DNA from: Eledone cirrhosa
Taxonomy: Eukaryota
Assembly: GCA_964016885.1 (NCBI GenBank)
Contig: OZ024758.1
Location: forward strand, 30,814,001-30,878,000
DNA length: 64,000 nt
Reading direction: 5' to 3'
This document shows positions 45-63,828 of this stretch, piece by piece (positions within the stretch are counted from its first letter, which is position 1; the number at the start of each line of letters is the position of its first letter). A model generated the notes under the pieces. That model saw nothing but the letters and a program-made list of their open reading frames with translations. It had not been told where the DNA came from and did no database searches. The translations under genes and the position numbers were made by a program.

Positions 45-155
45 CATATATATATATATATACACATATACATATATATATATAAATTATATAAATATAT
101 ATATATATTGATGAAAAAGAACAAAGGAACTATTATGACATTATAACAAGTTTAT

Positions 156-202
156 TGCCGACAGCCGTTTCGTCCGACCATATGGTGGGACTTTTCAAGG
201 CA
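156..202 (-). ncRNA. Type I hammerhead ribozyme, U3-A8 core variant
   Basis: Minus strand reads TGCC-TTGAAAA-GTCC(12 nt)GGAC-GAAAC-GGCT-GTC/GGCA, overlapping an AATAAA. Stems I and II pair, the triplet is GUC, and C3-G8 is replaced by U3-A8. Confidence 0.8.
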
Positions 203-525
203 TATAACAGGTAATTGTAAGTTCATTATTTTCATCAACGTTTCACTCAAGATTAGCAGTTTGAAATCGTGGTATACATCAACAGCTCAGCTTGTTTATC
301 TGGGGTCTATATTCTAAAGGGGCTCTTTTATATTAGTTGTAGGAGTTGTAAAAGGGATGGGTTGTAGGGAGTTAAGAGAATTTGAAAAGGGCCTAAAAGT
401 TAGGGATTGAAGGTTAAAAATTAAAGTTACACTGTAATTTAAGTTACACATCAAAAGTAAAAGACTTGGGATCTCTTACAAGCACCTTAAAAAATCCCTC
501 AATATATATATATTGAGGGATATGT

Positions 526-3208: not shown

Positions 3209-3264
<56 letters not shown>

Positions 3265-3333
3265 TATGAAGAGAGAAGAAACATTTAGATATAATTAGTA
3301 ATAAAATGTATCATACCTAAACTGCTCCTAGAT

Positions 3334-3423
3334 TCCTCGACTACGTAGTTTCGTGGCATAAACAAAAACAATACATCATAAAGATATAGAGTCCTTGCGA
3401 GGTCTGCCGACTTATCAAGAGGA
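3334..3423 (-). ncRNA. Type I hammerhead ribozyme, U3-A8 variant with long stem II
   Basis: TCCTC-TTGATAA-GTCGGCA...TGCCAC-GAAAC-TACGTA-GTC/GAGGA. Confidence 0.8.
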
Positions 3424-3926
3424 TACCTCATTTTACTAGTCTCAAGAACGCGTCTACACGACGTGAGAAAGAATCCCAAAAGGCGGAGGGGGAGATAGTC
3501 ACGCGATATAACGGTCGAGAAACAGAGCTAAGCCTCTTATAACCCCGAAGAAAATACCACGGAGGCGGAGGGGGTATTTATATCGAAGCCGTAGAAGAGG
3601 TGGTGAAGGAGGCGAGAAGTATGAGTAATGGGAGCTTTCCAGCAGTCCCCACACTTCAAAGATTGCTCGACCAGAGGGAGTTATTAACAATATATTTAGA
3701 AACACACAGATACATGCGGACACACACATATACATGAATGCATCCGCACCCAACCGTGAGTTAAGGGTGCCAACTTCACCGATGTTGCTCAATGAATGAC
3801 TGGGACAGACCAATCCGGTTGAACTAGACTGAACCAGTATCAGAGTTAAAAATACATTATGAAGAGAGAAGAAAAATTTAGATATAATTAGTAATAAAAT
3901 GTATCATACCTAAACTGCTCCTAGAT

Positions 3927-4016
3927 TCCTCGACTACGTAGTTTCGTGGCATAAACAAAAACAATACATCATAAAGATATAGAGTCCTTGCGAGGTCTGC
4001 CGACTTATCAAGAGGA
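3927..4016 (-). ncRNA. Type I hammerhead ribozyme, U3-A8 variant (second unit)
   Basis: Same sequence as 3334-3423. Confidence 0.8.
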
Positions 4017-4162
4017 TACCTCATTTTACTAGTCTCAAGAACGCGTCGTGTCATTCATTGAGCAACATCGGTGAAGTTGGCACCCTTAACTCACGGTTGG
4101 GTGCGGATGCATTCATGTATATGTGTGTCCCCGCATGTATCTGTGTGTTTCTAAATATATTG

Positions 4163-4231
<69 letters not shown>

Positions 4232-9211: not shown

Positions 9212-9625
9212 TTACATTTTATATATATATCTAAAAGTTGAGTTTAACCGATGTTTACAAGAACTAAATAAATTATTCCGCAAATTAACAGAGTTCTTAG
9301 ATTTTAGTATAAAGAATATTTCCTCTACACCAAGACTACAAAAATTGGATAAACCTGTGTAGCATGGTGCTTTGGAGACAATTTTCCAAAATAAAGAGTA
9401 TTTTATATTCTTGGATTTTAAATTCCATAATAAGTTGGATAGAGAAGTTGAAGATTTCTTGTTAATATTCGTAAAGGAACATTTATGGTTATTGAAACGA
9501 GATTTGAAGTCTGTCGAAGTAGAGCCGACATAGTTGAAGGAATTGGTTTTGACATTACAATTGTATATTATATTTTTAACTAAACAGTTATTATTTAGAG
9601 GACAGTTAGATTTATTTCTACAGTT
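9212..9625 (-). pseudogene. PLE GIY-YIG endonuclease domain (fragment)
   Basis: SNCRNKSNCPLNNNCLVKNIIYNCNV...YVGSTSTDFKSRFNNHKCSF...LSNLLWNLK...CSL..EE...CKHR. The first ~80 aa of the track ORF come from an unrelated insertion. Confidence 0.85.
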
Positions 9626-9639
9626 AGATTTATATATAT

Positions 9640-9880
9640 ATAGAAAAAAAGATGAAATCGAAAATGCAACTGGAGTCTTATTTAAAAAAATGTATATATA
9701 TTTATTTGGTTCCTTTACCGGTTTCGCAGTTCTTCTGCTTTTCAAAAGTAGAGTTGAGATGGAGGGTCTGTGGTTTTTCTTACATCTGGTTGGTCTTTGA
9801 ACGTTACTTGTTTTATATGGAAAAAAAGTGGCTCGAAACCCCAGGTTTTTAGAGAAGTAATTTGATTGGTTGGTCAATAA
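9640..9880 (-). mobile_element. Non-autonomous HHR element (ACCGGT family)
   Basis: Reverse complement of 57328-57565; partial copy at 50315-50395. Confidence 0.75.
9713..9748 (-). ncRNA. Minimal type I hammerhead ribozyme, U3-A8 variant
   Basis: CTT-TTGAAAA-GCAG(AAGAA)CTGC-GAAAC-CG-GTA/AAG; stem III is the palindrome ACCGGT. Confidence 0.7.
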
Positions 9881-10259
9881 GTATAATAAATTTCACGCCA
9901 GTTCGCGTTACAAAGTTCTTCAAACAGGGGGGGGGGGGGATCAGGTTGTTTTTTCATATATGAGTGTTTGAATTTCTTTTTACTTAAAAAAGGGGCTAAC
10001 GAAGGCTTTTTAAAAAAAAATGTAATTTGATTGGTTATAAATGAAATTATTGGTGTCACGTGAACATGTTCATTAAATTTCGTGCCCGTATTTGGGAATA
10101 TATTTTGTAGCCTTTTAGAGAATTTTATGACAAGCAAAAGAATGGTCAAGAGAAATGGGATGGGAGAATTGTTCTGGTTCAGTGAGTATGGCTAGTTCGC
10201 TGGGGTGTCAGAGTTCAGATTTTCTATTGAAATAAAGAAAGTAGACATGTATGTTTATT

Positions 10260-11495: not shown

Positions 11496-11577
11496 ACTCC
11501 AACTAATTAGTTTCTGAAAGGGAATAAACATGGTTTCTGAATGGAAAGCATGGAGAAACCTTTCGTCATCAGGAAGT
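11496..11577 (-). ncRNA. Type I hammerhead ribozyme with long stem II
   Basis: ACTTC-CTGATGA-CGAAAGG...CCTTTCA-GAAAC-TAATTA-GTT/GGAGT. Confidence 0.7.
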
Positions 11578-12024: not shown

Positions 12025-12092
12025 ACTCCAACTAATTAGTTTCTGAAACATGGTTTTCTGAAGCATGGAGAAACCTTTCGTCATCAGGAAAT
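12025..12092 (-). ncRNA. Type I hammerhead ribozyme (second unit, deletions in stem II)
   Basis: Core, stem I and stem III as in 11496-11577; stem II shortened. Confidence 0.55.
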
Positions 12093-18090: not shown

Positions 18091-19893
18091 AGAATGAAAT
18101 GGTCAACTATTTCTAAATGTTAATTGAAGAGATCCTAAGAGGCCCCAAACATGTCCAGAGTTGCCTTACGTACCTTGAAATAATTCAGATTATATTAGTC
18201 ATTGATTAATATTTATTGTTTTTCTTACCCCACAGTCATAACTTCCACTTATTTCAGTCAAACTGGGTCGTTTAATCCCTACTCATTTATAAATGGTGAC
18301 CGATGAGCTAAGCGTCCTTCACTGGTAAGAGCTTCATTTTCCTATAGTGAATCATAGAGCTGTAAAGATGATGATGAAACATATGTAATACATTTACAGC
18401 AGAAACTGATACCATCACGTTCATATCTACAATGTATGATTAGTTGTACTGGCTTCTTCAGCGTTCGGTTCCTTTCAAAGGGGCAGGCTACATACTCTTG
18501 ACACTTTAATAAATGATCAAAGATACTTTCGGCATAAAAAATGATAAAGTCGACATTTATATACTTTATTTAATGTGGCAAAGAATTTAATTAATTAAAA
18601 TTACACTCGTAATATAGAAAAAAATCATTACCTTAATGATTCATTCTGGTTAAGTGAGATAACCGAAGAATTTTAATGAATTTGAATTAAATATAAGAAG
18701 AAAGCAGCAGAAAATTAGTCTGATCTCTGACCGGTTTGAAATCTTTTAAGAAAACTATCACGAATTCATACAGCCCGCAGTAGGATAGACCGTTTGCTCT
18801 AAACTATTAAATTACATATTGATTATCTAAATTAACTAAATTATATGTTACTTAGCTAAAGTAAATTATGTAAATAAGGAAATAGGACCGTCAAATACAT
18901 AAATCTGAATATAGATATACACAGAACAAACACTAAGTAACCCCTGAATATCCTTATACATAAATAATACTCTCCGAAAACAAAGCCAATAATAAACAAA
19001 ACACCCAGTGGATATATATTGTCTTATCTTAGAATATAGTAATTCTGGTGTTCAAATTCTTTCTTTCTATGAATAACAACATTCAAGGTTCGGCAAAACT
19101 GATTCACCTACAAAAACGTTTCAGTGACTGTGTAACAAAAGCTCGATCTTTTAAGAATAAATCGACAGACAACTTATATAGTATATATATTTTTTCATAT
19201 AACATATATCGGCAACCTTTCATCTAGTCTAGATATTGATTCTGAAGTTTGGACTTAAATATTTTAAAGGATTAACTCCAGATCAAATCAGTCATGTTAA
19301 TCTGATATATTTTCGTTTCACAAACATCTTCGGAGGATTTTGTTTTTTCTGATTTGTATTTCGGAATCGGTTGCTATTTTAAGTGCTACAATACCTTATT
19401 TATTTATTTTTGCCTATGCTATTAGCCTATCATAATAGCAAGATAATTCGTTGTTTTTCTATTAAACTAAGACGTCTATTCGTCCTCACCAGTTCTTAGT
19501 ACAATTGCCTCCCAATAAGCTTCTCATGCAGGATATGTTAGATGGAATTAAAATTAATATGGATAGTATCTTCCAGTTTGTGTCAATAACGTAATGGATA
19601 ATTTGTATAAACATTTGATAAAACAACTGTATATTTTAGTTGTAAATACAGATTCATGGTATTTTTTCCTGATTTTGGTTTTCGTTAGATACACATTTCT
19701 CAATTAACTATGAATGTCTCGATTGCTTCTGATTTGGTTTTTATTTATGTCAAATTTAATTACATTTCTAGAAAATATACGCTTTCATCATATTGATACT
19801 TCTCACTTTGTTCTTTAATTATGTTAGGAAGAACGATATATGTTAAGAACATCGGAAAATCTGCCATTTCTATCCATTTTATTATTTTACATA

Positions 19894-28465: not shown

Positions 28466-29080
28466 GGGGGTGATTGTGTGTGTGTGGGGGGGGGGGGGTA
28501 ACTGTGTGTGTGTTGGGGGGCTGTGTGTGTGTGTGGGGGGGTGACTTTGTGTGTGCGGGGTGGGTGACTGGGGGGGGGTGACTGTGTGGGGGGGTGACTG
28601 TGTGCGTGTGTGCGGCGTGACTGTGTGTGTGGGTGGGTGACTGTGTGTGTGTGGGGGGGGGACTGTGTGTGTGTGGGGGGGGGGATGTGTGTGTGGGTGA
28701 CTGTGTGTGTGTGTGAGGGGGGATATGTGAGTGGGTGACTCTATGTGGGTATGCGTATGTGTGTGTATGTCTATGTGTGTATGTCTCTGCGTGTCTCTAA
28801 GTGTGTGCGTGTGACTCTGTGCGCATGTGTGTGTCTGTTTGTGTGTATGTCTTTGTGTACTTGTGTTTATGTGTGTGCGATTCTGTGTGTGCGTGTGTGT
28901 GTGCATGTGCATGTGTATGTGTGTGCATGTATGTGTGTGCATGTGTATGTGTATGTGTGCGTGTATGTATGTGTGTGTGCATGTGTGTGTGTGTGCATGT
29001 GTGTGTGTGCATGTGTGTTTGTGTGTGCATGTGTGTGTGTCTTGGTGCGGTGGTGTGTGGTTGTCAGCATGTGTATGTAT
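28466..29080. repeat. G/GT-rich low-complexity tract
   Basis: (GT)n and G-runs. Confidence 0.9.
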
Positions 29081-29239
29081 ATACTACGTTGATTAAGTCA
29101 GGCAGTTTGCCAATCTCCTTATTTAAAATCTGCCACGAGAAACTGTTCTCATAAAATTGTGGCCATATTTAAATTTAGAAAGTAAATATTAAGTCCATGA
29201 CCTAAGTTGGTTTTCATGCAACTGTCAATGTCACAGCAC

Positions 29240-31300
29240 ATTAGTTACCTCACACTACCTTAGTTACGTCACATCACCTTAGTTACGTCACATTACCTTA
29301 GTTACGTCACATCATCTTAGTTACGTCATGCAACCTTAGTTAAGTCACACCACCTTAGTTACGTCACACCACCTTAGTTACCTCACACTACCTTAGTTAC
29401 GCCACACTACCTTAGTTACGTCACACCACCTTAGTTACGTCACACTACCTTAGTTACCTCACACTACCTTAGTTACGTCACATCACCTTAGTTACGTCAC
29501 ACTACCTTAGTTACGCCACACTATCTTAGTTACGTCATGCTACCTTAGTTACGTCACACTACGTTAGTTACGTCACACTACGTTAGTTATGCCTCACTAC
29601 CTATTTACGTCACACTACCTTAGTTACATAACATTACCTTAGTTACGTCACACTACCTCAGCTATGTCACACTATCTTAGTTACGTCACATCACCTTAGT
29701 TACGTCACACAACCTTAGTTACGTCACACTGTGTTAGTTACGCCACACAACCTTAGTTACGTCACACTACCTTAGCTACGTCAAACTAGCTTAGTTACGT
29801 CACACTACTTTAGTTACATCACACTACCTTAGTTACGTCACATCGCCTTGGCTACGTCACACTACATTAGTTACATCACACCACCTTAGTTACATCACAC
29901 TACCTTAGTTACGTCACATTACCTTAGTTACGTCACACCACCCTAGTTACGCCACATCACCTTGGTTACGTCACATCACCTTAGTTACGTTACACCACCT
30001 TAGTTACGTCACATTGCCTTAGTTACGTCAGATTGCCTTAGTTACCTCACATCGCCTTAGTTACGTCACATTACCTTAGTTACGTCACATTACCTTAGTC
30101 ACCTCACATCACCTTAGTTACGACACATTACCTTAGTTACCTCACACCACCTTAGTTACGTCACATTACCTTAGTTACGTCACATCATCTTAGTTACGTC
30201 ATGCAACCTTAGTTAAGTCACACCACCTTAGTTACGTCACACCACCTTAGTTACCTCACACTACCTTAGTTACGCCACACTACCTTAGTTACGTCACACC
30301 ACCTTAGTTACGTCACACTACCTTAGTTACCTCACACTACCTTAGTTACGTCACATCACCTTAGTTACGTCACACTACCTTAGTTACGCCACACTATCTT
30401 AGTTACGTCATGCTACCTTAGTTACGTCACACTACGTTAGTTACGTCACACTACGTTAGTTATGCCTCACTACCTATTTACGTCACACTACCTTAGTTAC
30501 ATAACATTACCTTAGTTACGTCACACTACCTCAGCTATGTCACACTATCTTAGTTACGTCACATCACCTTAGTTACGTCACACAACCTTAGTTACGTCAC
30601 ACTGTGTTAGTTACGCCACACAACCTTAGTTACGTCACACTACCTTAGCTACGTCAAACTAGCTTAGTTACGTCACACTACTTTAGTTACATCACACTAC
30701 CTTAGTTACGTCACATCGCCTTGGCTACGTCACACTACATTAGTTACATCACACCACCTTAGTTACATCACACTACCTTAGTTACGTCACATTACCTTAG
30801 TTACGTCACACCACCCTAGTTACGCCACATCACCTTGGTTACGTCACATCACCTTAGTTACGTTACACCACCTTAGTTACGTCACATTGCCTTAGTTACG
30901 TCAGATTGCCTTAGTTACCTCACATCGCCTTAGTTACGTCACATTACCTTAGTTACGTCACATTACCTTAGTCACCTCACATCACCTTAGTTACGACACA
31001 TTACCTTAGTTACCTCACACCACCTTAGTTACGTCACATTACCTTAGTTACCTCACACCACCTTAGTTACGTCACATTACCTTAGTTACCTCACACCACC
31101 TTAGTTACGTCACATTACCTTAGTTACCTCACACCACCTTAGTTACGTCACATTACCTTAGTTACGTCACCTGACCTTAGTTACGTCACATTACCTTAGT
31201 TACGTCACATGACCTTAGTTACGTCACATTACCTTAGTTACGTCACATGACCTTAGTTACGTCACATGACCTTAGTTACGTCACATTACCTTAGTTACGT
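29240..31300. repeat. Minisatellite, 19-bp unit (~108 copies) with an 873-bp higher-order duplication
   Basis: Unit CCTTAGTTACGTCACACTA. The variant string ATCATCTTAGTTACGTCATGCAACC occurs at 29311 and 30184. Confidence 0.95.
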
Positions 31301-39480: not shown

Positions 39481-39824
39481 AAAGAATACATTTTCATAGC
39501 TATATTTTCAGCTTGATGTTTCTTTTAGTAATTTTAGTCAAGGCATACTGCATATATATATATAATTCAGTTTTTTTTATATATATATATATATAAAACT
39601 AAATTATATATATATATATATATAACTTAATTATATATATAACTTAATTATATATAACTTAATTATATATATATGCAGTATGCCTTGTCTAAAATTACTA
39701 AAAGAAACATCAAACTGAAAATATAGTTATAAAAATGTATTCTTTAGGATATAAGATCTGCGAAAAGTGGGAAAAATACATAATAATTATGTATTTTCCC
39801 CACTTTGCGTAGATCTTATATCCC
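39481..39824. repeat. Two adjacent inverted repeats, the first straddling a TA tract
   Basis: 39481-39562 pairs with 39666-39745; 39747-39824 is a hairpin (GGATATAAGATCT...AGATCTTATATCC). Confidence 0.85.
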
Positions 39825-39994
39825 TCACTATAGTGGTTCTATACCCCTTGTAACTGTAAACATCCCCCTTTTTGTGTTTTCTTCTCTATATACTGTATTA
39901 TGAAGAGCCCAGAACATTTTCCTTGAACTCATAAAATTACAGGGGATTAACGGGAGTCTTTATCTCTGTTTTTTCATTTGATATTTATCTATCT

Positions 39995-40992
<998 letters not shown>

Positions 40993-43781: not shown

Positions 43782-45665
43782 CGGGTAAAATTCCCGAGAA
43801 CCATGGACGAGTTCTCTTCAGAAGTCTCTGTCCCTCATCATCGTTGCCATACCCTGCGTCTCCAACAGACCAGTGTCTGTCCTTAGGGCATCAACATATG
43901 TCAACCTCGGTCGCTCTCTTCTAGTGTGTCAATGCAGGGGCTACCTCAGGAGCAGTGAGTGCAATGTCAACTCTGGATGTCGGTGAGCATGTCCAGCTAA
44001 CCTCAATCTCTTCTGTGTCACTTTTGAGCTGACTTTTGGGAGGCTCCCGTACAGCTCTGAGTTCTTCATCCTCAGTATATACTGATTAATGTTCAGAGTC
44101 ATCCTCAGCATTCTCGTGTAGCACTCATCCACCATCTGAGTGAGTTTCTTGGTCAGTGACCAAGTCTCAGACCCGTACAGTAGCACAGCCTCTACTACAG
44201 CAGCGAAGAGACGGATCTTCAGGTCTTTACGGATGTCCGACTTCCACACAGAGCCCAAACTGTTGCACGCCGCCCAGGCTTGCTCTTCCTCACAACCACA
44301 TCATCATCTGTGTTTCCAATCTTTGCTCCCACATACAGGAAGTCCTCAACCAAATCTAGTCGCTTTCCGCCTACATTCTTCTCTGGCTTCTTAATATTCT
44401 CTACCGGATACTTCGTCTCATTCATTCTCAGCCCCACACTCATCGACACAGTCTCCACCTCCTGCATCAACTCTGCCTCCTTCACTATGTTTATCACCAT
44501 ACCTGTCTCCCCGCGGGTGTTGAGGGTGACCTTCAATGGAAACCCAAGTCTGGCAGTCATCTCAGCCTATAGTCCAACCGAGGGAGACAGTGATGTGAGT
44601 GCGGAAGAGTTCCATGAGGAGGTGTGTAGAGCTGTCAACACCACACCAGCTCATAACATCCTGCTTGTTCTGGGGGACTTCAATGCACATCTGAGTAAGG
44701 AGGGCAGTGAAGATCCTTGCTGGTACTTCCATAACAACACAAACCGGAATGGAAGATTACTGAGAGACACCCTGCTGGAGGCGAACTTGATTGTAACCAA
44801 CCTAAGGTTTAGGAAGAATTCGGGGAAGATGTGGACCTACATCTCAGATATGCACTTGTCCAAGTACCAGATTGATTTCATTCTGCTGAGGATAAAGTGG
44901 CGGAATAGTGTTCTGAACACTGAACCATACAACTATTTCGGTACACTGGGTCGTGACCACCGGCTTGTTATGAATGAGGCCAGTGTGAGCTTAAGAAAGA
45001 GTAAGGCTCAGCCCCGGAGAGCAATCTAGGACTGGGGAAATTTCAAGGGAGATGATAAGCTACAGGAGAGGTTCCCAGTAGAATTGAGGAACAGGTTCAG
45101 TGCTATGTGTGGAGAGGAAGAGGAGAGAGAGATTGGAGGGACTGAGGAGAGTGTGACGAGGATGATTCTTAGCAGGATCCTGTCCGAGATGGAGAAGAAG
45201 CTCAGGGACAACCAGAACGGCTTCAGAGAGGGAAGATCAACCACCAGTCACATCCTGATGCTGAGGAGGATATTAGAGGGAGCTAGAGCAAAGAGCCTTC
45301 CTGCTGTCATGGTTTTAATTGACTTTAAGAAGGCCTTTGTGGACCGTCACTGCCTGGTGAACATCTTACCGGGTTATGGAATCCCCAAGAAGATAGTGGA
45401 TCTGATATCACTGCTCTCCACCAACACCAAAGCCCAAGTCATTAGACCTGATGGGATGACGGAGTTCTTTGAGATACTGGCTGGAGTGCTCCAGGGAGAT
45501 ACATTGGCTCCCTACCTTTTTATCATCGCAGTGGACTATTGTATACGCCTTGCACTGGAGAAACACCAGGACTCTGGCTTTATTGTAACACCGGCTCAGA
45601 GCAGGAGAGTTAAGGCGAAAAAGGTATCGGATGCTGAATTTGCCGACGACATAATTATGGTGACA
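43778..45665 (-). mobile_element. RTE LINE: 3' part on minus (43778-44495) with inverted 5' part (APE endonuclease and RT, 44496-45665 on +)
   Basis: APE motifs ISAYSPT, LGDFNAH, QIDFIL and DHRLV. RT motifs QNGFREGRST, LIDFKKAF, GVLQGDTLAPYLF and FADDI. Internal deletion between APE and RT. Confidence 0.95.
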
Positions 45666-45699
45666 CACACATATATATATAATATAATATAATATAATA

Positions 45700-45817: not shown

Positions 45818-46655
45818 AGAAATTACATGAATCAAAGTTCTGTTTAAATCATTTATTTGCTTACAATTGTTTCCTCCAAACCGAGGTTTGGAGTCTTCGG
45901 AGCAATTATTCAGTTATTTTTTACATACTTGACCTCCTTTTCAACACAAGAGACATATAGAAACATATGTATATATTGAACCACAGTGGGTTGACATCCA
46001 TTATAATAATATAGCATGGCATTTTACAAACAAAGATTACAGTCATATTAAGGACAAAATTAAAGTTAAAATTAAAATTAAAATTAAAATTAAAATTAAA
46101 ATAAAACATTGGCAGTTTACGAATATAAAGCAAGAGGAAAGTTTGGAGTAGCCAGTGTATGCAACAGTCACACGTGAGGCATGCACGCGTGTCCTATTTA
46201 TACAAGATTATAGTGCGGCAGATTGTTACATGTATAACAAGCAGTCAAAGCAGGCAATCAAGAGCATCATGGGGGCTGTACTAGTAAAGCATTTTTCACA
46301 CACACCTGTACGATATAGAAGCCCGTGTGTAGAGAAACACCAAAAATATCAAAAATATTACAAATGAGAAGCAAAACAGCACCACTGTCCTCGCACACAC
46401 CACCACTCTCACAATCCAGGAAACGCAATTTATAGACTACATGTCCATCACACAATCGACGATGATTCAACATTGGGTGCCTGGTGAACCATGTTAGAAC
46501 ATCACAGCTTGTCGTTCTCTAATTCGATTCTATAGAGCAGGTTGTTTTTTTAGTGCAGGTTGTTTTTAGGGTTTAAAATATTTAGGGTTTAAAATATATA
46601 TAACTATAAAAGGTTTTAGTATATACATAACCATAAATAGTATCCTTAATACTAT
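45818..46655. mobile_element. Diverged pLTR of the 59.5-63 kb PLE family with inversion
   Basis: 45825-46500 aligns with about 59540-60200. 46600-46655 matches the terminus at 63025-63068. Confidence 0.7.
45857..45905 (-). ncRNA. Type I hammerhead ribozyme, U4C variant (CCGAAGA)
   Basis: TTGCT-CCGAAGA-CTCCAAAC(CTCG)GTTTGGAG-GAAAC-AATT-GTA/AGCAA. Confidence 0.8.
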
Positions 46656-50296: not shown

Positions 50297-50958
50297 CTCT
50301 CTCTATATATATATAGGAAAAAAGAAGTTGAAAATGCAATTAGAGTCTTTAAGACGGTTTATTTACAATAAATTACAACTTTACCGGTTTCGCAAGTTCA
50401 CATAGATGGAGACATGTATGGCTATGCCAGCTTGTAACTCGCATTTATATATATGTTTACATTTAGAGTGTAATTGTCCTTGTATAAGAGAGTGGAGAGT
50501 GATTTGAGGGTGTTTGGTTGGTATTTCTAGCCTATCATCCACAACATTTTGGTTTGTGTTTTAGTAAGGTTTTTGCATTTGATGAGTGTGTATCCGGTGA
50601 AAGGGGATTAGTAACGTTTAAAGGAATTCTATAGTGTTTATATGTAATGTGAAGCTGGAAACAAAATATGCAGGAAATATGGTGGCTTTATAAATAAGAA
50701 TTTCACTTGGGGAGCCATCCTTGTTCCTATGATATTTCGTCGGTTATAAAAGAGAAAGGAAATTCTTAACTGGATTTATTTCCAGTTAACTTTAACGAAT
50801 CCAATCCTAGCAAAGATCAGGTTTATCTTTTATTTCACCCGAGTTTTAATTTTCTGATCTTAAAACTTTTTTTTTTTCTGCATATAAAAGTCAGAAAACT
50901 CATCGCTAGAACATCCGTTAAAACAACTAAACGGTGTCGAAGACAGTAATAGGAAAAA

Positions 50959-51655: not shown

Positions 51656-52509
51656 ATTTTCTTAAGGATGAGTCTTTTTAGTTGTATCGAGATGCGCATT
51701 AGAGATGTTTTATGTCTCTAATAATTGGAATATTATACTAGTAACTATGAGAGCAAACTAACTGTATTTTTTTAAAGAAACGGAGATTCATTCAATTCTC
51801 AAGTATATTGGATAGAATCTAGGTTAATACCGATATCGAAATAGTGATATTGAAAGTACACCTTTGAAAACCTTTCAAATCATATGTTGTAGTTAATAAG
51901 TGAATCATGCTGATTAAAGTGACACGATGTTGATGTAATAGTCATTTCTCTGTCAGTTACACTACAAATATTTATTTCCAATTATTTCCAAGGTGGTAGC
52001 CGAGGTTAAGACTCTCACTGCATTAATTTTCTTCAAAATTATGTTTTTTAGGCAAAATGAAATATATTAATAACTAGCAGTTAATAATATACAGAATTTA
52101 CATGCCTGGGATCCAGTTAATGATAACTAGAACCCAGGGACGTAAATTCTGTAGAATAATACCTTATAAAAAAACAATATTGCGCTAACGGGGATAAGTG
52201 AAATAAATCGATGTCGTGGACATAAAACAAATGTATATGGAAATACTGACTGACGTTCGCAAAACCATTCTTAAATTGAAATTTTCTTTGAATGGAGAAA
52301 GAAGGAAAACATGGTGGCGTTCGTTAGTGACTCGCGGAGGAGAAGGGAGATAACTGCAATAAATTATGATGTAATTGAAATAAATTGTCATGCTTAAGGG
52401 AAAAATTGATGTTTGATATCCGGAAATTACTGTCAATCATTGTTCTAAGATTGAAATATCAGATTTGATTTTGATTGACACGTGATTGTTTGAAACGTGA
52501 CTATCACTT

Positions 52510-57012: not shown

Positions 57013-57456
57013 TAACATTAGCTACCTAAGCCAATGATCTTCCCCATGAAATTGTTCGGAAGATTGTACCTCTTCACATGTTGATGTTATACTTATCTAG
57101 TTTTATGAGATATCAGTGAAGTAAGGATGTAGCTAAAATTAACATGAGGAAATTGGACAGCTCGTCCTGAGGAGCTGGGGAGAGGAACTAGTGGATTTGG
57201 TCAATTTACTTTTAATACTATAATACATATTTCCTATAGGCAGTCATCGCCGACTGCGAACGGACTGTCTATGAGGATAATGACAATGATGATCACATAT
57301 ATATATATGCGCGAAATTTATTATAATTATTGACCAACCAATCAAATTACTTCTCGAAAAACCTGGCATTTCGAGCCACTTTTTCCATATAAAACAAGTA
57401 ACTTTCAGAGACCAACCAGATGTGAGAAAAACCACAGACCCTCCATCTCAACTCTA

Positions 57457-57492
57457 CTTTTGAAAAGCAGAAGAATTGCGAAACCGATAAAG
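57457..57492 (+). ncRNA. Minimal type I hammerhead, U3-A8 variant (ACCGGT family)
   Basis: CTT-TTGAAAA-GCAG(AAGAA)TTGC-GAAAC-CG-ATA/AAG; one substitution in stem III. Confidence 0.6.
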
Positions 57493-57810
57493 GAACCAAA
57501 TAAATATATATATTTTTTTAAAATAAGACTGCAGTTGCATTTTCGATTTCATCTTTTTTTCTCTATACTTTCACTCGTGTAGGTTATTTTTCATTTTGTA
57601 AAAAAAACTCACTTTCTAATATATCTATATATATATATATATATATATAAATTTTAGTACAGCATAGACGAAGCTCTAGTATACGGCCAAGCTAGCGTGT
57701 ATGCTTATTCGGTTTGTAGCTTTAGCACTCAGATGAGGTAAGACCCCAGAGTATAACATTATGTTCAGACAGCTTAGCAAATTAGATATAACAGTCGGCA
57801 GTTCAACCGC

Positions 57811-59493: not shown

Positions 59494-59531
<38 letters not shown>

Positions 59532-59571
59532 ATGAAATATAAGAATCAAAGAACTGTTCAAAACATTATTG

Positions 59572-59618
59572 TGCTTACAGCTGTTTCCTCCAAACCGAGG
59601 TTTGGATTCTTCGGAACA
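59572..59618 (-). ncRNA. Type I hammerhead ribozyme, U4C variant (inverted pLTR)
   Basis: TGTT-CCGAAGA-ATCCAAAC(CTCG)GTTTGGAG-GAAAC-AGCT-GTA/AGCA. Confidence 0.75.
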
Positions 59619-60547
59619 ATTTATTAATGCATGGACAGTTATATGACCTCCTTTTCAGCCGAGAGACATACCAATACATATTCAAACATTGATACATATT
59701 CAAACATTGTGGGTCAACATTCATTACAGAATTTAGAGTGGCAGTACACACTTCGAGATTACATTTATATTAATAGGTACAATCAAAAATCAAAGATATA
59801 GGTTAAAGTACAACATGAAGATAAGTGGTTATATAGTGCAAATGTTATATGTGTGGCACGCATGTGCGTCTTGTTTATATAGTGTGGCAGAGAGATATGT
59901 GTGGTAGAGGCACTTAGGTAGGTAAATAAGAGTGTTAGGTTGGTAGATCTGGTGGCAAAGTCTTTATATGATTGATATAGTCTGTGTGTGGAGAAATATT
60001 ATAAGCATTAAAGATAGTGCAAGCATTAAAAGTGTTATAATTATTGGAGATGCACAGCGCAGGGATGTCAAGTAATTCATGTACTTCGGCATTTTCATGG
60101 TCAAGGGAGTGTATATTTCGATTATATGCCTTTCACACAATCCACGACAATCCAGTTAGAGATCGTAGTCTGGTGTTCTTTAGTTCGATACAGGAGGTTG
60201 TTACGTTTCGAGAAACGCCATTGAATACCGGAAGTGTGTGTGTGGCTAAGGGGAGTTAATGCATGCGGGGAGGTAACTCTGGGGTTTCTATATCTAGCCA
60301 TTAAAATGTGTCCCAATATAGACCCTAAATTCTATGGTGAGGTGCACCTTCCAAGAGAGACTTTTAAAGCATAAAGTGTACTAACTATAGAGTAGTTTAA
60401 CTAAATTATGCTGAAGGTGATCATATTATTATTAAGGTGGATTAACCCATCTTAAGGTGCTACAAATGGAAATTATAGATGATGAGCGAGGATTCTAAAT
60501 TAATGATCTCTGTGGTTGTAGTCTGCTCATATGACCAGGCGCGGTGA

Positions 60548-61372
60548 TTGCAGGATTGCTTCAGCCTAAATGTCTCCACCAACATACCTAGGGCTTTCTT
60601 CTCACTACTAGATAAAAACTTCCCTCTAGGACACAAGTACCACAACCTCTTAAACAAAAACACCATTAAAATCTCATACTCTACGACGCCTAACTTAGCA
60701 TACCACATAGCTAGCAGCAATAATAGTAAAATTAGTTCTTACTTCCAACAAACAAAATCACAACGGGATGCAAACCCTCTAAATACCACTGTAGCAAGCA
60801 ACAATAGCAACGGCAGTAACAATAGAAATAACACTAGTATAAGTAATAACACCAGGGTTGCCAACCCGAACACCCAAAATCCTATATCCACCACACAGAC
60901 TTCCGCATTGCATTATAACCAGCGGACTAACGCACAGAATAATTGTAACTGTAGAGCTAATAGAACCTGCCCTTTAGATAAAAAATGCCTAACCAAGGAT
61001 GTCATATACTCATGCACAGTCACGACTAATAACTCTTCAGAAACCTATGTAGGCTCCACTTCTAACTGCTTCAAAATCAGATATAACTCGCACATCCACT
61101 CGTTCAAAAAGCACAGCCTAGCCAACTCCACCTCACTTTCTAGCTACATACACTATCTAAAATCTAAAAATAAACCATACACACTCAAATGGGAAGTGAT
61201 AGGCAGCGCGACCTCGTACAAACCACCTAATAAATTCTGTAACCTCTGTATACTAGAGACACACAATATTATCTTCTCCAACCGTAACCTACTTAACAAA
61301 AAATCTGAGGTGTTTGCAACTTGCCAGCACCGCCTCAGACATTCCTTCCAAAACTTTAAGCCCTATATATAG
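60548..61372 (+). pseudogene. PLE ORF C-terminus: linker plus intact GIY-YIG endonuclease (RT lost by 5' truncation)
   Basis: FSLNVSTNI...LLDKNFP..HKYH.LLNKNTIKISYS, an Asn-rich linker, then CNCRANRTCPLDKKCL..VIYSC.V...YVGSTS..FKIRYNSH...CNLCILE...CQHR. The ORF start is created by the inversion junction. Confidence 0.9.
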
Positions 61373-62815
61373 CAATGTCGGACTGGAACCTAACACCACA
61401 TCTAGCATCAAACACCAGAGACACACCCTATACTACATACCCAACACTAGCTGATCCATTATAACACAAACAACGACATCCCTCTGGAACCCTTCGCAGG
61501 GAAAATACCCATTTATACCTCTACGGCAGGTGTGACAACATCCACCCACTTGGACGGCACTACACCGCTCTAAGGGTAATTTGAGCATGAATTGATCGGT
61601 TGGATGGTGTTGGGCAGAGGAAACACCTTCCTTAGACAGATGTAAAATGATTTAATCGAGTAGCGCTGTTGACCAGTAGGACCGGGCTGCTGAGCGCAGT
61701 GAGTGAATGCAATGCAACTGCCGTGCGGGTTGTACGTATATGGATGATCTGACGGTCAGAGACGGGTCGCGAGGACTGCGGATTGACCTTTGGCCTGCCT
61801 GGGGACGATTATCTTTCGACATCCAATGTAGCAAGCGATGACCCAGATCTTACCAGAGATCATTGGGTCCTGAAGCAATCCTGCAATCACCGCGCCTGGT
61901 CATATGAGCAGACTACAACCACAGAGATCATTAATTTAGAATCCTCGCTCATCATCTATAATTTCCATTTGTAGCACCTTAAGATGGGTTAATCCACCTT
62001 AATAATAATATGATCACCTTCAGCATAATTTAGTTAAACTACTCTATAGTTAGTACACTTTATGCTTTAAAAGTCTCTCTTGGAAGGTGCACCTCACCAT
62101 AGAATTTAGGGTCTATATTGGGACACATTTTAATGGCTAGATATAGAAACCCCAGAGTTACCTCCCCGCATGCATTAACTCCCCTTAGCCACACACACAC
62201 TTCCGGTATTCAATGGCGTTTCTCGAAACGTAACAACCTCCTGTATCGAACTAAAGAACACCAGACTACGATCTCTAACTGGATTGTCGTGGATTATGTG
62301 AAAGGCATATAATCGAAATATACACTCCCTTGACCATGAAAATGCCGAAGTACATGAATTACTTGACATCCCTGCGCTGTGCATCTCCAATACTTATAAC
62401 ACTTTTAATGCTTGCACTATCTTTAATGCTTATAATATTTCTCCACACACAGACTATATCAATCATATAAAGACTTTGCCACCAGATCTACCAACCTAAC
62501 ACTCTTATTTACCTACCTAAGTGCCTCTACCACACATATCTCTCTGCCATACTATATAAACAAGACGCACATGCGTGCCACACATATAACATTTGCACTA
62601 TATAACCACTTATCTTCATGTTGTACTTTAACCTATATCTTTGATTTTTGATTGTACCTATTAATATAAATGTAATCTCGAAGTGTGTACTGCCACTCTA
62701 AATTCTGTAATGAATGTTGACCCACAATGTTTGAATATGTATCAATGTTTGAATATGTATTGGTATGTCTCTCGGCTGAAAAGGAGGTCATATAACTGTC
62801 CATGCATTAATAAAT

Positions 62816-62862
62816 TGCTCCGAAGAATCCAAACCTCGGTTTGGAGGAAACAGCTGTAAGCA
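62816..62862 (+). ncRNA. Type I hammerhead ribozyme, U4C variant (3' pLTR)
   Basis: TGCT-CCGAAGA-ATCCAAAC(CTCG)GTTTGGAG-GAAAC-AGCT-GTA/AGCA. Confidence 0.8.
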
Positions 62863-63079
62863 CAATAATGTTTTGAACAGTTCTTTGATTCTTATATTTC
62901 ATATAACTGCTCTGTAAATCATCTGATGTTTTTACATTGAGCTACTTAACTTACTGGTAATAAGGTAGTAATACATTATTGCCTACCACTATTTAGGGTG
63001 TGTGTAAAATACTTACAACTGCTTAAGGTTTTGTGTTTACATAACCATAAATAGTATAACTAATACTATATATATATAT

Positions 63080-63095
63080 ATATTTCCCACTCATC

Positions 63096-63144
<49 letters not shown>

Positions 63145-63154
63145 CCCACTCATC

Positions 63155-63233
<79 letters not shown>

Positions 63234-63443
63234 CCCACTCATCGGTATATATATATATATATATTTCCCACTCATCGGTATATATATAAATATATATATT
63301 TCCCACTCATCGGTATATATATATATATATATATTTCCCACTCATCGGTATATATATAAATATATATATTTCCCACTCATCGGTATATATATAAATATAT
63401 ATATTTCCCACTCATCGGTATATATATATATTTCCCACTCAAC

Positions 63444-63510
<67 letters not shown>

Positions 63511-63784
63511 TTTGAGTATATGTTGGTTATATACCAACACCTCAGTAAGCAGGCAGGAGCACTCGATGAAGTGCGCAGGTTGGTTTGGTTACTCCGGAGT
63601 AATGTAAAATAAAGTTAAATAAAAAGTAAAATGTTTAAAATTTAGCTTCGTTTATAACCGAAGCTAAATTTTAAACATTTGACTTTTTATTTAACTTTAT
63701 TTTATATATATATATATATATATTTCTCACTCAACGGTATATATATATATATATATATATATTTCCCACTCAACGGTATATATA

Positions 63785-63828
<44 letters not shown>

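Follow-up and report, generated by a model that had tools for sequence, protein, structure and literature searches.

Within the window, the whole 64-kb stretch of Eledone cirrhosa DNA analysed here, five heptamers depart from the canonical hammerhead core CTGANGA at both position 3 and position 8. TTGAAAA is located at 198-192 (minus), 9745-9739 (minus) and 57460-57466 (plus), and TTGATAA at 3418-3412 and 4011-4005 (both minus), so that the minus strand holds four of the five and the plus strand only the 57460 copy. A sequence-only reading had named all five, without strands, and all five are present where it placed them. The heptamer alone says little, as TTGANAA occurs 75 times in the window with both strands summed. 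All five sites carry the letters of a type I hammerhead core, comprising N3-UGA-N7-N8-A, a Watson-Crick 3-8 pair, G12-A13-A14, A15.1-U16.1 and an NUH triplet. The same reading had placed each heptamer in an otherwise complete fold; this holds at four of the five sites (A, B1, C1 and C2), where three helices surround the core with an open stem I and G10.1-C11.1, and fails at the 57460 copy (B2), where the 15.2-16.2 pair is broken. Core letters and fold together mark the sites as type I hammerhead motifs in which the core pair is U3-A8, a change correctly read as compensatory, with cleavage predicted. The features fall into three families, A, B and C:

112..500, minus strand: family A repeat unit, high copy, extending on its 5' side at least to 500 (runs X1 and X10 both give read depth in each of the 28 bins, with loose ends at 111-113)
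156..202, minus strand: family A type I hammerhead motif (fold scan)
3259..4165, minus strand: family C element, direct repeats around a non-coding interior, ending in (TA)n
3334..3423, minus strand: family C hammerhead motif, downstream copy, C1 (fold scan)
3927..4016, minus strand: family C hammerhead motif, upstream copy, C2, identical to the downstream copy and 593 nt apart from it
9212..9634, minus strand: fragment of a GIY-YIG endonuclease, Hydra-clade in type (PF01541 at E=5.8e-4, which does not reach the curated cut-off)
9637..9898, minus strand: family B repeat of 262 nt ending at TA, with 93.5% identity to 57309-57567
9713..9748, minus strand: family B hammerhead motif, copy 1, B1 (fold scan)
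50304..50399, minus strand: diverged third B-like copy (74%), with GAAACCGGUA and the tail kept and no recognisable core upstream
57457..57492, plus strand: family B hammerhead motif, copy 2, B2, damaged, with core UUGAAAA at 57460-57466

Family A is represented in the window by one copy. Its ribozyme comprises stem I UGCC/GGCA (4 bp), the core UUGAAAA at 198-192 (U3 at 198, N7 at 194, A8 at 193), stem II GUCC/GGAC plus ACC/GGU (4+3 bp) followed by GAAA, and a stem III made of the self-complementary ACGGCUGU (168-161), whose self-duplex is predicted at -9.7 kcal/mol. With its GUC triplet, the predicted cut lies between 160 and 159. The 3' end of the repeat, near 112, sits beside a (TA)n run, 47 nt past the predicted cut.

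In family B, the B1 motif is composed of a 3-bp stem I, the core UUGAAAA (9745-9739), stem II GCAG/CUGC (4 bp), stem III ACCGGU and a GUA triplet. This is the weakest fold of the three families, and its RNAfold centroid forms stem II alone. B2 has A57487 where B1 has G, which creates a C.A mismatch at 15.2-16.2 and makes the copy fail the descriptor; furthermore, U57476 gives a G-U pair in stem II. The GIY-YIG fragment at 9212-9634 lies directly downstream of the family B repeat with a short TA run between them, and the two may be parts of the same element or separate insertions. A 226-aa stop-free frame that runs through B1 into the endonuclease was considered and set aside, as B2 has no such continuation.

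In the downstream copy of family C, stem I UCCUC/GAGGA (5 bp) and the core UUGAUAA (3418-3412) are joined to a long extended stem II hairpin and a GUC triplet, and stem III is the palindrome ACUACGUAGU, with a predicted self-duplex of -12.9 kcal/mol. In the minimum-energy fold of an RNA spanning both C copies, the two ACUACGUAGU palindromes pair together over 10 bp. The element is built on direct repeats of 196 nt (4047-3852 and 3454-3259, 99.5% identical), and its segment 4165-4050 is an inverted, 116-nt copy of 3685-3800. After the upstream ribozyme, the minus-strand segment 3909-3829 forms an 81-nt intron-like stretch with a GTATGA start, a TACTAAT branch-like word, a pyrimidine tract and a CAG end; introns are known in terminal repeats of Penelope-like elements.

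Several features point to Penelope-like elements as the setting. A (TA)4 run lies at most 160 nt from the core in all three families, the upstream C copy excepted, and each family is associated with repeats or ends of the expected kind: C lies in the 196-nt direct repeats, A has its 3' end at (TA)n, and B lies in the 262-nt repeat ending at TA. All three carry the short palindromic stem III of dimer-type hammerheads (6-10 nt; ACGGCUGU in A, ACUACGUAGU in C and ACCGGU in B1). The window also holds three mutually similar GIY-YIG fragments of the Hydra type (9212-9634, 39935-40564 and 60548-61372), which match longer proteins of 524-648 residues, one of them annotated with a reverse transcriptase domain. 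Inspected by eye and with no tree, the endonuclease fragments show a CxCX5C linker and CxxC and CxH motifs, features also given for the Hydra clade, whose insertion target is (TA)n (PMC8557442). A tblastn search found no GIY-YIG frame near A or C, and only B1 abuts one; no reverse transcriptase or endonuclease frame is tied to A or C, and B alone adjoins an endonuclease. Elsewhere in the window, a broken non-LTR retrotransposon frame at 44184-45692 (plus) gives endonuclease (PF14529) and reverse transcriptase (PF00078) matches. The Penelope-like assignment is made because of the ends near (TA)n, the paired terminal repeats and the Hydra-type GIY-YIG fragments. The repeats also suggest an animal host. 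We conclude with good confidence that A, B and C are U3-A8 type I hammerheads near the ends of likely Penelope-like terminal repeats, predicted to dimerise through stem III and to cut after GUC or GUA.

As we picture it, two copies would pair through stem III and form a dimer, an arrangement described for Penelope-like hammerheads (PMC4209133), and motifs with a palindromic stem III are reviewed as cleaving as dimers (PMC6765202). The paired copies would cut the element RNA after GUC or GUA and thereby process the transcript, with U3-A8 preserving the tertiary 3-8 pair. Selection for a functional core would have fixed U3-A8 in every active parent, from which retrotransposition would have copied it passively, the present copies being mostly truncated or decaying remnants. 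The double change had been taken as a sign of selection on catalysis; this overstates the case, as any selection would have acted on active parents and not on these genomic copies, of which the one at 57460 is already damaged.

The published evidence on the activity of U3-A8 cores is mixed, and the activity depends on context. Hammerheads covarying at positions 3 and 8 are described as active in vitro, the activity being credited to Przybilski and Hammann 2007 (PMC3088659). In pairwise mutagenesis of a type III hammerhead, the G3-C8 swap alone rescued cleavage, and the other double mutants there were low (PMC9901934). In a Penelope-like element of anole, C3G and G8C each abolish cleavage, the double mutant partly rescues it, cleavage required protein, and hammerhead mutants left in vitro insertion unaffected (PMC11167929).

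A structural scan that left positions 3 and 8 free returned, in the 64-kb window at a score of at least 9, 15 C3-G8 folds, four U3-A8 folds and none mismatched at 3-8, which agrees with the coupling of the two positions that had been proposed; the scan required a palindromic stem III, a filter introduced after hits had been seen, and the four U3-A8 folds amount to three independent sequences, with both C copies counting as one. The stem II limit had to be 90 nt for the family C folds to be recovered, 45 nt being too short. Strict 10.1-11.1 pairing missed canonical copies and was relaxed in later scans, including this census. Under the same score and palindrome filter, 100 local dinucleotide shuffles gave 0.03 U3-A8 folds per shuffled window (at most one in any) versus the four found, with expectations of 0.04 for U3-G8 and 0.03 for C3-A8; at a score of at least 10 (60 such shuffles) the U3-A8 figure was 0.10, again versus four found. 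Clustering gave eight families of C3-G8 with U4, one of C3-G8 with C4 and three of U3-A8, and the coupling counted by family, eight versus three, reaches p=0.006 in a Fisher test that ignores shared descent. Monomer folding energies are no better than those of shuffles (z -0.2 to -1.5).

In total, the window carries 23 hammerhead motifs in 12 sequence families, none of which reach the Rfam gathering score. Rfam returned no hammerhead match at gathering score and none among the matches listed at E<=1 (150 of 190), only microRNA matches driven by microsatellites; since the 15 canonical folds were also missed, the Rfam miss has no power here. Among the canonical motifs is a related C3-G8 pair in the same orientation at 11566-11572 and 12081-12087 (minus), 515 nt apart, with the palindrome ACUAAUUAGU. 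The family with C4 (U4C), a known natural hammerhead variant (PMC3088659), has complete type I folds with the core CCGAAGA at 62820-62826 (plus), 59608-59614 (minus) and 45894-45900 (minus), and A faces G (A.G) where stem II starts, at its base. Two of its copies lie within 1036-nt inverted arms (59529-60564 and 61870-62905) that flank the GIY-YIG frame 60548-61372. At 63070-63445 and 63735-63800 (minus) there is an array of CCGATGAGTGGGAAA (variant CCGTTGAGTGRGAAA), spaced by (TA)n runs of varying length; it resembles a core joined to GAAA without a stem II and is probably a minisatellite. A further long minisatellite, with a 19-nt period and about 100 overlapping registers, occupies 29070-31300.

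The three U3-A8 families had been described as unrelated. They show no alignable similarity to one another, the observed pairwise score being reached by 190 of 200 shuffles for A-B, 143 of 200 for A-C and 37 of 200 for B-C; this part of the claim stands, and independent origin does not follow from it. The C3-G8 families of the window mostly fail to align with one another too, so an absence of alignment does not imply lack of kinship. Likewise, the recurrence of the variant holds as three families with U3-A8, but the five copies trace back to no more than three events, and possibly to a single old one that three lineages inherited. If A, B and C descend from a single ancient U3-A8 ancestor and their non-coding ends have drifted apart past alignment, the whole set reduces to one compensatory event. 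Non-coding ends of such elements diverge fast, their extreme variability being stressed in discussion of related elements (PMC4209133), and the mutual unalignability of the C3-G8 families fits the same picture. Against a common ancestor, stem I, stem II length, palindrome and triplet all vary among A, B and C, and A aligns gap-free over the ribozyme with the C3-G8 family at 62820, 59608 and 45894, beating 200 of 200 shuffles. The tails alone reach 12 of 1000 shuffles, which is not significant among 36 comparisons, and kinship of A with this U4C, C3-G8 family is suggestive on the basis of the alignment. On balance a single origin is a tenable alternative, though not one we would favour; the main explanation could stand alongside it, but the recurrence would be lost.

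A proposal of three separate origins of U3-A8 among the Penelope-like lineages of this genome, with variant cores making up about a third of hammerhead families (U3-A8 in three and U4C in one of the 12 in the 64 kb), is rather doubtful. Three independent families would constitute a natural test of selection for cleavage in Penelope-like elements. If the three origins were true, the repeated two-step compensation would amount to phylogenetic proof that the elements need cleavage in vivo, a need that did not emerge from the published insertion assay in vitro.

Family C could also be a non-autonomous, retrozyme-like unit, in which cuts at both copies would free an RNA of 593 nt for circularisation and for re-insertion with Penelope-like help. 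In favour are the two ribozymes, identical, similarly oriented and spaced 593 nt apart with no long open frame between them, and the predicted inter-copy stem III; a preprint (10.64898/2026.07.22.740005) also derives animal retrozymes from such terminal repeats. However, because the repeated part covers only 196 of the 593 nt, family C is not a head-to-tail tandem array, and ordinary Penelope-like insertions typically have an inverted copy next to them, as family C does (PMC8557442). We regard this origin of family C as unlikely. Non-LTR retrozymes are built of head-to-tail units that each contain a hammerhead, an organisation absent here, with the C repeats limited as above and A and B dispersed.

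Whether the U3-A8 core is ancestral to its family or a product of decay bears on the preferred reading, in which terminal-repeat hammerheads inherited it from active parents, and can be addressed for family A through public reads. Nine public runs contain part of 110-500, with no RNA run listed among them, and family A reads were compared in four of 12 listed runs at a likeness of at least 80%. This comparison covers family A only, with relatives less than 80% alike left out and with assembled contigs that drop rare variants. Run X10, reduced-representation data with many rows from one start, was left out of the variant evidence. In run X1, 213 contigs cover family A with 38 changes, 35 of them listed, and among the changes listed the only ones inside 156-202 are at 180 and 181 (loop II) and at 194 (N7, about 13% of depth). 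Changed places thus number none of 40 at constrained positions versus three of seven at free positions (p=0.002, or 0.035 if the three remaining changes were all at constrained positions), and 31 of 298 places are changed in the 5' flank among the changes listed. No variant of A8 (193) is listed in this run, with all T changes there accounted for, and one A-to-G change outside the 35 listed could be position 3. A single contig in run X7, labelled as another organism, keeps U3 and A8 and has N7 changed. The 46 nt downstream of the ribozyme are equally invariant (0 of 46 changed in run X1, among the changes listed), so the ribozyme is not singled out by the conservation of family A. Just one or two subfamily haplotypes may lie behind the three variable places. 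No switch between C3-G8 and U3-A8 was seen inside any family, the read data being for family A only. Since the family is high-copy, A8 is unchanged and the listed changes within the motif fall only in loop II and N7, it is a fair reading that U3-A8 is the inherited state of family A rather than decay of a single copy.

The read data weigh on the proposal that U3-A8 was reached by drift in dead ribozymes, C-to-T and G-to-A both being transitions toward AT, with no selection on catalysis. The composition of the window (26-45% GC per 2 kb), the damage in B2 and the coreless third B-like copy at 50304-50399 would suit such decay, as would single-change folds, namely C3-A8 at 39505 and U3-G8 at 52030 (score 7-8, where one U3-U8 fold also occurs) and U3-G8 at 18124, added by a looser scan without the palindrome filter. 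Yet the score 7-8 folds match the shuffle background, the weak single-change folds turning up about as often as other odd cores do in shuffles, and neutral decay predicts many single changes for every double one, whereas none is found at a score of at least 9. A, B1 and C moreover keep their palindromes and the remainder of the core intact, and A8 is constant across the family A contigs where N7 varies. Drift is accordingly an improbable source of the variant. That the motifs are chance products of AT-rich repetitive DNA is hardly credible, for all that TTGANAA is common and the family B stem I has just 3 bp within a long stop-free frame, given four U3-A8 folds versus 0.03-0.10 expected per shuffled window and an anatomy and near-(TA)n placement shared with the 15 canonical folds, and for A and C it is already largely refuted.

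The preferred reading, U3-A8 hammerheads of Penelope-like terminal repeats, places A, B and C among known relatives. Perreault 2011 gave the first natural report of U3-A8, with positions 3 and 8 changing together from C-G to U-A in several natural hammerheads (PMC3088659); the covariation is the same as in the window, and the passages on these variants concern families other than A, B and C. Cervera 2014 described U3-A8 in the Cercyon Penelope-like elements of Schistosoma mansoni, noted that the variant was 'not considered in our descriptor', and gave about 1,300 hits after the descriptor change versus about 2,000 with the first (PMC4209133). The core search of Craig 2021 used the string cuganga (PMC8557442). 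The expectation that searches requiring CUGANGA would miss such ribozymes is borne out by the descriptors of both studies. Thus, A, B and C are new examples of a variant published in 2011 and 2014, and the compensatory reading and the descriptor blind spot are also in print.

U3-A8 is rare in phage contigs under the pattern used. There, 28 stretches match the U3-A8 pattern versus about 900 estimated matches to the open pattern, mostly C3-G8, and a fold cut-off of 8 is passed by two and of 7 by five, type II folds falling outside the test. A viral scan gave, in a 132-locus sample, 121 C3-G8, five U3-A8, four U3-G8 and two C3-A8, and the 114 that pass the fold test are all C3-G8. Two phage contig loci, L168 and L169, combine a U3-A8 core with plausible type III and type I folds. 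In a metagenome scan with a family-A-shaped pattern, none of 18 stretches was U3-A8, and no alignable relative of A, B or C appeared. What the window adds is density, with U3-A8 in three of 12 hammerhead families versus its rarity in phage contigs, and the addition is modest.

The closest published parallels are in Penelope-like elements. The Cercyon motifs (PMC4209133) share with A, B and C the core covariation, the type I topology, the animal Penelope-like setting and a mostly single, dispersed occurrence, and they too were missed by a first descriptor. They differ in being minimal, with a bulged base between 9 and 10.1, whereas in A, B and C G10.1 follows straight after A9. Assignment to the minimal hammerheads of Cervera 2014, which lack stem III and loop 3 and carry the 9-10.1 bulge, was therefore set aside, as A, B and C have palindromes and no bulge. 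In their 6-10 nt palindromic stem III they resemble the 'less atypical' group described there (PMC4209133), family C having an unusually long stem II. The layout of family C resembles the pLTR and inverted-copy arrangement of Penelope-like elements (PMC8557442). Hydra-clade elements, as presented in the same source, are alike in endonuclease motifs, in repeats ending at (TA)n and in a type I hammerhead near the 3' end; in the hammerhead table of that source, obtained with the canonical descriptor, 26 of 26 rows are C3-G8, whereas A, B and C are U3-A8. If the link to the Hydra-clade frame is real, U3-A8 in such an element would add a little to what is published on that clade.
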